Shown: positions 3,240 to 5,353 of the stretch, piece after piece
How positions within the stretch are numbered: the first letter of the stretch is position 1
Layout: each line of letters opens with the position of its first letter
IMG/VR virus record: IMGVR_UViG_2654587792_000035
Location: 1 to 7,341 of that record
Length of the DNA: 7,341 bases
Strand: one strand, 5' to 3'
Source: a virus
Lineage: Duplodnaviria > Heunggongvirae > Uroviricota > Caudoviricetes
Made by a program: the position numbers and the translations under genes
The notes under the pieces: generated by a model
Databases searched by the model: none
What the model saw: the letters and a program-made list of their open reading frames with translations, nothing else
What the model was told of the DNA's origin: nothing

Positions 3240-3539
3240 ATGAGAACATATTTATCTGGCTTGACTGCCAGCGGTTATGCACACCCCCAAATTATCCCCG
3301 GCGCTATTTATCTGGATAAGAACGGTAACAGAGTAACGGTAAAAGAACTGATGTTTGACCGTGTGTATTTTATTCGTGATGGCTATTCATTTCATAGTTC
3401 GCTGAACGTGGAGATCTTTATTAGCAGATTCAGGCGGGAAATCCCGCTTTCCAGAAAAAACCATGTGTCACGTGTGAATGTGGATAAAAAACTACAGGAA
3501 CTGAAAAACATGATTGCCGCGTGGAGAGAGCAGAAATGA
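3240..3539 (+). CDS. Hypothetical protein (99 aa), translationally coupled to the downstream replication gene
   Basis: ATG at 3240 preceded by GGGGA; its stop TGA (3537-3539) overlaps the ATG (3536) of the next gene in an ATGA arrangement. No recognisable motif. Confidence 0.6.
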   Translation: MRTYLSGLTASGYAHPQIIPGAIYLDKNGNRVTVKELMFDRVYFIRDGYSFHSSLNVEIFISRFRREIPLSRKNHVSRVNVDKKLQELKNMIAAWREQK

Positions 3540-5353
3540 AAAAAGCGCCAAATTTAAAACACCAGCCGCGTGACAAAATGACGGAAGTCATCATTTTTGC
3601 GGGTAGTGATGCGTGGGCACATGCGAAGCAGTGGCAGGAACAGGACGGGCGACTGGCTGGCGATAACGTGCCTCCTGTCTGGCTTGGAGAGCAACAACTT
3701 GCCGAACTGGACAACCTGCAAATCGTACCGGACGGACGCTATCGCGTGCGTCTCTATCAGGCGGGGTTATTGCGTCCGGGGCTTGTTAATACCATCGGGC
3801 AGAAACTGGCAGCGGCAGGTGTCAGGGATGCTGATTATTACTCTGAAGGAATGCACAGCCAGAAACGGGAGAACTGGCGCGAATATCTGGAACGTGAACG
3901 GGCAGAGCTGGCGGAAAAGAAAAAGGTAGTTGAACTGCCTGTAAAGAAAAAAGAGCGGGTAAAAGACGATAACGCTTCATCACTGGCGCTTAACCAGATG
4001 GGAGCAAGTCAACGCGGCGAAGTTCTCCTGGCACATTATGGCGGTGAACTGGCGATTCATGCTGACTCTGACACTGTTCACCATTACAACGGCGTTGTAT
4101 GGGAGCCAGTACAGGATAAAGAATTACAGCGAGCTATGGCACAGATTTTCATTGATGCGGAGATCAGCTATTCGCAGAACGCCATTAAATCGGCGGTCGA
4201 TACCATGAAGTTAAGTTTGCCTGTAATGGGGAATACAGCCCGTAACCTGATTGGATTCAGTAACGGGGTATTTGATACCAGAACAGGTAATTTTCGGGAG
4301 CATAACAAAAACGACTGGTTGTTAATTGCCAGTGAATTACCTTTCAGCCCACCAGCAGAGGGGGAAACGCTGGCAACACATGCGCCGAATTTCTGGAAGT
4401 GGTTACGCCGTTCGGTGGCTGAGAATGACCGCAAGGCGGATCGCGTACTGGCTGCATTATTCATGGTGCTGGCGAACCGGTACGACTGGCAGTTATTCAT
4501 TGAGGTAACAGGTCCAGGGGGAAGTGGTAAAAGCGTGATGGCGGAGATTTGCACCATGCTGGCGGGTAAGGCCAACACAGTATCGGCAAGCATGAAGGCG
4601 CTGGAAGATGCAAGGGAACGCGCGTTAGTGGTTGGCTTTTCGCTGATTATCATGCCGGATATGACCCGCTACGCTGGTGATGGGGCAGGAATTAAGGCCA
4701 TTACAGGCGGTGACAAGGTGGCAATTGATCCGAAACACAAAGCCCCCTACTCAACGCGTATTCCGGCAGTAGTGCTGGCGGTTAACAATAACGCCATGTC
4801 ATTCAGTGACCGCAGCGGGGGGATCTCACGTCGTCGGGTGATATTCAATTTTTCGGAAGTTGTACCGGAGAACGAACGCGATCCAATGCTGGCGGAAAAA
4901 ATAGAAGGTGAGCTGGCGGTAGTGATTCGCCATCTGCTTACACGGTTTGCTGACCAGGACGAAGCCAGACGCCTGTTATATGAGCAGCAGAAATCTGAAG
5001 AAGCACTGGCGATAAAGCGAGAGGGGGATTCGCTGGTGGACTTCTGCGGCTATCTCATGGCGTCGGTAATGTGTGATGGCCTGTTAGTGGGTAATGCTGA
5101 AATTGTGCCATTCAGCCCACGCAGGTATCTCTATCATGCCTATCTGGCTTATATGAGGGCACATGGGTTTGGTAAACCTGTAACACTGACGCGCTTCGGT
5201 AAAGATATGCCGGGGGCAATGGCGGAATATGGCAGGGAGTATATGAAACGGAAAACGAAGCACGGTTTGCGTTCAAACGTGACACTGACGGAGGAATCAG
5301 AAGACTGGATGCCATCATGTGTATCGGTCACTAATGACGATAGCAAAAATTAA
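3536..5353 (+). CDS. Replication initiator: SF3 helicase of the phage/plasmid primase P4-family C-terminal type (605 aa), with an N-terminal toprim-like region and a C-terminal putative origin-binding domain
   Basis: ATG at 3536 with GGAGAG upstream; the track ORF start at 3521 is a GTG and was rejected. Walker A GPGGSGKS at 4511-4534, Walker B-like LIIMPD at about 4643-4660, and motif C-like VLAVNNN at about 4768-4791, in the order expected for SF3 helicases. N-terminal EVIIFAGSDAWAH resembles a toprim start with the usual Glu replaced (inference). No canonical primase catalytic domain was recognised by eye. Confidence 0.85.
   Translation: MKKAPNLKHQPRDKMTEVIIFAGSDAWAHAKQWQEQDGRLAGDNVPPVWLGEQQLAELDNLQIVPDGRYRVRLYQAGLLRPGLVNTIGQKLAAAGVRDADYYSEGMHSQKRENWREYLERERAELAEKKKVVELPVKKKERVKDDNASSLALNQMGASQRGEVLLAHYGGELAIHADSDTVHHYNGVVWEPVQDKELQRAMAQIFIDAEISYSQNAIKSAVDTMKLSLPVMGNTARNLIGFSNGVFDTRTGNFREHNKNDWLLIASELPFSPPAEGETLATHAPNFWKWLRRSVAENDRKADRVLAALFMVLANRYDWQLFIEVTGPGGSGKSVMAEICTMLAGKANTVSASMKALEDARERALVVGFSLIIMPDMTRYAGDGAGIKAITGGDKVAIDPKHKAPYSTRIPAVVLAVNNNAMSFSDRSGGISRRRVIFNFSEVVPENERDPMLAEKIEGELAVVIRHLLTRFADQDEARRLLYEQQKSEEALAIKREGDSLVDFCGYLMASVMCDGLLVGNAEIVPFSPRRYLYHAYLAYMRAHGFGKPVTLTRFGKDMPGAMAEYGREYMKRKTKHGLRSNVTLTEESEDWMPSCVSVTNDDSKN

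Follow-up and report, generated by a model that had tools for sequence, protein, structure and literature searches.

The DNA analyzed here (the window, 7341 bp; positions 1 to 7,341 of the IMG/VR virus record IMGVR_UViG_2654587792_000035) constitutes a small E. coli island of the integrative kind, inserted between cspD and clpS. The subject of this analysis is its replication initiator, a protein of 605 residues annotated as a DNA primase, together with the AT-rich repeat tract directly downstream that forms the putative replication origin. The initiator joins a helicase and origin-binding half of the phage P4 alpha lineage to an N-terminal domain of ~125 residues (the N-domain), which lacks the catalytic residues of a primase.

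Helicase, origin binder, and putative origin

3240-3539, plus strand: DUF4222 gene (Pfam PF13973); its stop overlaps the initiator start by 4 nt
3536-5353, plus strand: initiator gene, 605 residues, annotated 'DNA primase family protein' (WP_001504094.1)
3536-3910, plus strand: N-terminal domain (residues 1-125), conserved alpha/beta, candidate pseudo-Toprim
3584-3622, plus strand: motif EVIIFAGSDAWAH (residues 17-29), first strand and start of helix 1, with A22-G23 at the Toprim E-G position
3869-3889, plus strand: motif ENWREYL, whose E112 is kept across the N-domain family
3911-4018, plus strand: charged variable linker (residues 126-161), defined from alignments; N-domain/helicase junction in relatives
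4019-4408, plus strand: D5_N (residues 162-291), Pfam PF08706, E 1.6e-13
4508-4846, plus strand: SF3 helicase core, DUF5906 (residues 325-433), Pfam PF19263
4511-4534, plus strand: Walker A, GPGGSGKS (residues 326-333)
4643-4663, plus strand: Walker B, LIIMPDM (residues 370-376)
4772-4792, plus strand: motif C, VLAVNNN (residues 413-419)
4826-4846: motif SRRRVIF
5021-5308, plus strand: C-terminal origin-binding domain, Pox_D5 (residues 496-591), of the P4 alpha DNA-binding type (Pfam PF03288; PDB 1ka8)
5362-5591, both strands: AT-rich repeat tract with iterons, putative replication origin
5884-6306, plus strand: SSB gene (Pfam PF00436), product ending in ...DNIPF

The initiator begins at ATG 3536, the start used in the RefSeq relatives (loci L001 and L026), with a GGAG ~10 nt upstream. 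An in-frame GTG at 3521 was considered as an alternative start and rejected because all homologues have MKxAPN as their N-terminus, at this ATG. The positions that the original prediction, made from the sequence of the window, had given for the helicase core and for the EVIIFAGSDAWAH motif were all confirmed.

That helicase, origin binder, and origin are all of the P4 type follows from three findings. First, residues 145-595 of the initiator share 50.7% identity with P4 alpha (tblastn). Second, the last 100 residues match the structure of the P4 alpha origin-binding domain (1ka8) with an E-value of 1.8e-24. Third, the repeat TGTTCACC, found directly downstream of the initiator in nine exact copies at 5368-5588 and two degenerate ones, on both strands, is the octamer annotated as 'ori type 1 repeat' in P4, where it occurs in both ori and crr. 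The iteron tract has a GC content of 0.38, and the whole window contains 10 exact copies of TGTTCACC against 0.23 expected by chance. In addition, the helicase core matches the SaPI5 primase-helicase (7ola). An initiator that acts as a helicase and origin-binding protein of the P4-alpha lineage is thus supported at the sequence level, and iteron binding by the C-terminal domain with unwinding by the SF3 core, as in P4 alpha, has strong support from homology. The original prediction had proposed a helicase/origin-binding initiator rather than a P4-alpha-type primase-helicase, and the domain content bears it out: D5_N, the SF3 core, the winged helix, and the iterons are present, while a zinc ribbon and a Toprim domain were not detected. 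The tenth exact TGTTCACC lies at 4075-4082, inside the D5_N part of the initiator coding region, and may be a chance occurrence or an autoregulatory site.

P4 alpha shares with the window initiator the D5_N domain, the SF3 helicase, the C-terminal winged helix, and a TGTTCACC octamer adjoining the gene. P4 has separate ori and crr regions, whereas the window island has one iteron cluster. The other point of reference is the Pri-Rep protein of EcCICFT073 (WP_000761835.1; Fillol-Salom 2018), which is encoded by the CFT073 island next to phoQ, with DUF4222 upstream and an ori and SSB downstream. It has the same N-domain (71% identity over residues 1-125) and the same architecture, with 49% identity over the full length, but its helicase/DNA-binding half is only 44% identical and its iteron is CTGTCTACC. 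The iteron tracks the C-terminal domain in the two islands, being of the CTGTCTACC type in EcCICFT073 (L027, 4010-4238) and the P4 octamer TGTTCACC in the window (5362-5591). The exact P4 octamer fits a C-terminal domain that is closer to P4 alpha than that of EcCICFT073.

The N-terminal domain in the primase slot

In P4 alpha, the ~330 N-terminal residues contain a zinc ribbon (Zn_Ribbon_Prim, residues 30-66, 1.9e-18) and a Toprim_3 domain (residues 210-299) with the EGYATA and DRD motifs, whereas the window initiator has ~125 residues without these motifs. Neither Pfam family was found in the window initiator or in its relative from vB_KppS-Ant. A Pfam scan of residues 1-160 returned no match, the N-domain likewise matched no NCBIfam family, and no DnaG-type or AEP primase domain is recognizable in the initiator, in line with the original prediction that no primase domain would be found. 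The sole NCBIfam match of the protein is 'primase_Cterm' (P4 family), which is sub-threshold and covers the helicase region. The name 'DNA primase' is therefore inherited from the P4 alpha helicase half and does not reflect a primase domain.

The motifs of a DnaG-type primase are missing one by one. Residues 1-140 include zero cysteines, which excludes a zinc ribbon, and the N-domain family is devoid of a cysteine cluster. The catalytic glutamate of Toprim, already suspected to be lacking, is replaced by alanine in the window; across 64 N-domain members, this position is alanine (51), isoleucine (7), or valine (6), and never an acid (0/64). The original prediction also held that no DxD motif occupies the expected place. 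This is correct, and no DxD is conserved, but a literal one exists: D98-A-D100, located in strand 4 and not after strand 3. Both acids are kept in 6 of the 64 members, and the motif was rejected as a displaced DxD because of this poor conservation. The absence of primase catalytic residues holds regardless of whether the domain descends from Toprim.

A primase encoded elsewhere in the island was also sought. The other open reading frames of the window gave no primase-family match, and those without any domain match are all shorter than 110 residues. For 19 related loci from Enterobacterales, BLAST of every open reading frame out to 8 kb to either side identified no P4-type primase, and none was found among the Pfam-annotated genes of a more distant island (L005).

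The N-domain forms a narrow, mobile family. A search of 1.84 billion representative proteins with the N-domain profile yielded only 137 matches, with the domain N-terminal in every case and fused to at least four types of helicase or NTPase: P4-alpha/D5, DUF927, AAA_25/RepA, and VapE-like. In other mobile elements, all four helicase types bear N-terminal primase domains (PMC7581432). Among 5426 complete E. coli genomes, 1851 (34%) contain DNA that encodes the N-domain. The domain is under purifying selection, with a dN/dS of 0.12-0.21 that is approximate because synonymous sites are near saturation. Residues A4, P5, Q10, E17, G23, A26, P47, L55, G77, A92, E112, and R122 are conserved family-wide.

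Identity values for the N-domain and for the helicase half do not vary together: they amount to 71% and 44% with EcCICFT073, 56% and 87% with a Raoultella locus, and 46% and 88% with vB_KppS-Ant, respectively. This pattern argues that the N-domain is swapped by recurrent recombination within the charged linker. Some database entries (P0003, P0004, P0085, P0094) are chimeras that continue in frame from the N-domain into the C-terminal portion of the island SSB, which suggests recurrent deletions that take out both helicase and ori. Fusions of DUF4222 with the N-domain are also on record and are probably the product of frameshifts or sequencing errors.

In 12 of the 19 Enterobacterales loci (L006, L008-L010, L015-L018, L021, L022, L025, and L027), the end of the DUF4222 gene overlaps the start of the N-domain gene by 4 nt, and the overlap is seen with three helicase types following (D5, DUF927, and RepA). 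In the remaining 7 loci, DUF4222 is missing or replaced by unrelated small genes, and a lambdoid prophage of CFT073 has a copy as well. For these reasons, DUF4222 was rejected as an obligatory partner of the N-domain. A sequence search of the PDB with DUF4222 returned nothing.

Ancestry of the N-terminal domain and source of the primers

We interpret the protein as a self-loading SF3 initiator with a non-catalytic, degenerate-Toprim N-domain that obtains its primers from the host, and assign this reading a probability of roughly 0.6. Its two parts, the ancestry of the domain and the origin of the primers, rest on different evidence and are taken in turn.

Toprim ancestry: When 37 N-domain members were compared with Pfam at E<=10, one notable match emerged, to Toprim_3 (E 0.001, 19.9 bits). 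The matching member (P0062) is 53% identical to the window N-domain, and its residues 58-120 are collinear with profile positions 28-91 of 95. The match spans PEDWHDYL, the counterpart of which in the window is ENWREYL; this motif resembles the 'DWND' motif found after strand 4 in P4 alpha and could be what is left of that Toprim_3 motif. A chance match at this level is unlikely, given that Toprim had been hypothesized beforehand and that very few of the 24,736 Pfam models represent Toprim families. Weighed together with the contrary results given below, descent of the N-domain from Toprim is the likelier reading but not an established one.

Origin of the primers: The original prediction left priming to the host or to a helper phage. 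At the restrictive temperature and with no helper phage, the rep gene and ori of EcCICFT073 maintain a temperature-sensitive plasmid in DH5alpha, and deletion of rep or ori abolishes or reduces this maintenance (PMC6092414). Replication driven by the EcCICFT073 rep-ori is thus shown by experiment, whereas the window replicon is known from its sequence. Since the homologous rep-ori replicates without a helper, helper-supplied priming is unnecessary, which leaves host priming or an intrinsic, non-canonical activity. Of the two sources first proposed, the helper is thus not required, and the host is the one we favor: the window initiator probably does not prime, and, by analogy with EcCICFT073, the host would do so.

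A sequence of events can be proposed on this basis. The C-terminal winged helix would bind the TGTTCACC iterons just downstream of the gene, and D5_N with the SF3 core would then melt and unwind the origin. The zinc ribbon and Toprim primase of P4 alpha would have been replaced by a non-catalytic alpha/beta domain of ~125 residues, most likely a degenerate Toprim. As this N-domain would be unable to make primers, they would have to come from the host, supplied by DnaG (directly or through the PriA/DnaB primosome) and/or by RNA polymerase. SSB tails offer a basis for the possible recruitment of host primosome proteins, and the ...DNIPF tail of the island SSB may serve in this way. The N-domain would be kept for another service to the helicase, such as handling of single-strand DNA, loading, or docking of a partner, as in metazoan Twinkle. 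Domain layout, iterons, lack of catalytic residues, N-domain conservation, and helper-free replication of a homologous replicon are shown; the parts of this scheme that we infer are descent from Toprim, a role as adaptor, and which host enzyme primes.

Precedents exist for a primase domain that serves a helicase by means other than priming. Twinkle's N-terminal domain has lost primase activity and aids single-strand DNA binding and the synthesis of long products (PMC7231222), and residues of the T7 primase domain are required for helicase loading (PMC9198812). Twinkle, which is mitochondrial, has an SF4 (RecA-type) helicase and keeps primase motifs II-VI, having lost mainly the zinc-finger cysteines, whereas the window initiator has an SF3 helicase, the acidic motifs themselves are gone, and the two share no sequence homology. 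SaPI Rep/PriRep5 proteins of staphylococcal satellites share the layout, with a self-loading SF3 or MCM-like helicase, a C-terminal winged helix that binds iterons, and an ori just 3' of the gene. SaPI primases differ in being AEP-type, catalytically intact, and either fused or encoded upstream, with no counterpart of the N-domain. The SaPI primase contributes to SaPI replication without being essential (PMC7581432), which sets a precedent for host priming.

Several results weigh against our interpretation. The Toprim_3 match lies below the Pfam cut-off (19.9 versus 27.2 bits). An hhalign comparison of the N-domain family with the P4-alpha primase profile gave a probability of 0.2%, a null result that is itself weak because the P4 alignment has low diversity (>=67% identity). 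Foldseek found nothing in the PDB at E<=0.001 for the model of the N-domain, and for a distant member, whose model has higher confidence, SAVED domains head the ranking and DnaG appears only from rank 7. A local hidden Markov model of the P4 Toprim region gave no signal against the N-domain family, and the family profile had only chance-level matches among PDB sequences. The description of the N-domain as 'toprim-like' in the original prediction is accordingly supported only in part: the collinear, sub-threshold match speaks for it, and these structure and profile comparisons speak against it. As for priming, an SF3 helicase runs 3'-5' on the leading-strand template, and we know of no route by which it would recruit DnaG. 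Finally, three acidic positions are conserved in the N-domain (E17, D/E104, and E112).

The N-domain could instead be an unrelated Rossmann-like module (SAVED/CARF-, MID-, or PTS-IIA-like) that works as a ligand-sensing or docking regulator, with priming still external. This is unlikely but deserves attention, as the SAVED matches of the distant member keep a sensor module in play, no profile-profile signal connects the N-domain to the P4 alpha primase, and the domain swaps independently of the helicase, like many accessory or regulatory modules. Yet the N-domain occupies the exact slot of the Toprim or AEP primase in related helicases, the sole notable Pfam match among the 37 members is to Toprim_3 and is collinear, and a domain scan of the island open reading frames revealed no cyclic-nucleotide synthase or similar signaling gene.

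The conserved acidic positions E17, D/E104, and E112 bear on a second alternative, in which the N-domain, by itself or together with the co-translated DUF4222 protein, would be a cryptic primase with non-canonical chemistry and the label 'DNA primase' would be functionally right. Four helicase families bear the N-domain where a primase would sit, 12 of 19 loci encode a translationally coupled small protein upstream, and the rep-ori cassette is enough for replication in E. coli (PMC6092414). There is also a precedent in CCPol-MP of SCCmec, a primase that is neither DnaG-type nor AEP and works with a small partner protein (PMC7581432). We consider this improbable: the domain has 125 residues, no polymerase-like fold, and no zinc or helical template-binding module, and the strand ends, which in Toprim form a two-metal carboxylate cluster, show none here. 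At the start of strand 1, E17 is on the edge opposite a Rossmann-type active site, and DUF4222 is missing from at least 7 of the 19 loci and occurs in a lambdoid prophage as well. In its boldest form, the N-domain with or without the DUF4222 protein would be a priming device outside both the DnaG and AEP types. Such a proposal is highly improbable; a new priming device, if true, would explain both the primase slot in four unrelated helicase families and the sufficiency of rep and ori. A milder novel reading would make the N-domain a switch of SAVED- or MID-like type that senses nucleotides and thereby gates the helicase.

Lambdoid helpers use host DnaG, which counts against a helper phage as the source of primers. 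That a helper primes, or that the replicon is in decay and has ceased to fire, is hardly credible: satellites do rely on helpers for many functions, and the window island lacks the protease-capsid gene of its closest relatives and carries a homopolymer frameshift in a small open reading frame, but the EcCICFT073 rep-ori with the same N-domain replicates helper-free (PMC6092414), WP_001504094.1 is also encoded by a fuller island, the N-domain is under purifying selection, and a 75%-identical protein belongs to the induced, packaged element vB_KppS-Ant.

The published names for such genes are 'Pri-Rep', 'primase-replicase', and 'DNA primase', given without domain-level analysis (PMC6092414, PMC10085698, PMC11773190), and in the literature consulted we saw neither the loss of the catalytic domain nor the N-domain described. 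The initiator helicase of the P4-alpha and phage-inducible chromosomal island (PICI) type is known; what is new is the uncharacterized, possibly pseudo-Toprim module at its N-terminus. Annotations of genes with the N-domain range from DNA primase family protein and RepA-family helicase to DUF927 or DUF5906 protein, and under the names 'Pri-Rep' or 'primase-replicase' the genes are taken to mark PICI and cf-PICI satellites. Because the catalytic primase part is missing in the whole class, the annotation misstates the biochemistry, and these very common satellites would depend on a host priming route. Host-dependent priming is unsurprising as a basic idea, and exchange of the N-domain among four helicase families fits a general function in replisome coupling or regulation.

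The rest of the island

1-1239: integrase
1659-1868: AlpA
minus strand: YlcI/YnfO-like gene
between the minus-strand genes and the DUF4222 gene: Icd-like gene, then an open reading frame of 106 residues
downstream of SSB: DUF1441 protein gene, then an open reading frame of 95 residues

The gene order is that reported for Gram-negative PICIs (PMC6092414). The Pri-Rep/ori layout of these elements is found in the window, with a unidirectional int-alpA-...-rep arrangement and sets of iterons flanking an AT-rich spacer directly 3' of rep. SSB is likewise downstream of the initiator in the related loci L017, L025, and L027. The O157:H7 island (L025) was considered as EcCIEDL933, but its gene content differs from that of the published 15.4-kb cf-PICI, and we did not treat it as EcCIEDL933.

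Between alpA and the Icd-like gene, two minus-strand genes (1983-2519) run antisense to the rightward-transcribed island: the YlcI/YnfO-family gene and a hypothetical gene of 57 residues (174 nt in the RefSeq relative L001). EcCICFT073 has the same pair.

The window represents a deletion variant, its positions 6306-6572 corresponding to 12305-15106 of L026. In the closest relatives (99.9% identical, for example NZ_CP101915), a further 2.5 kb separates SSB from the DUF1441 gene. This segment encodes a fusion of a ClpP-like prohead protease with a major capsid protein and is missing in both the window and strain 2017.18.02CC. A small open reading frame between the origin and ssb (5641-5887), which encodes a hypothetical protein of 81 residues in relatives, is frameshifted in the window by a run of eight A (A8, ~5658-5665) where two relatives have A7. 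The remnant that stays open has a TTG start and encodes 66 residues (5687-5887).

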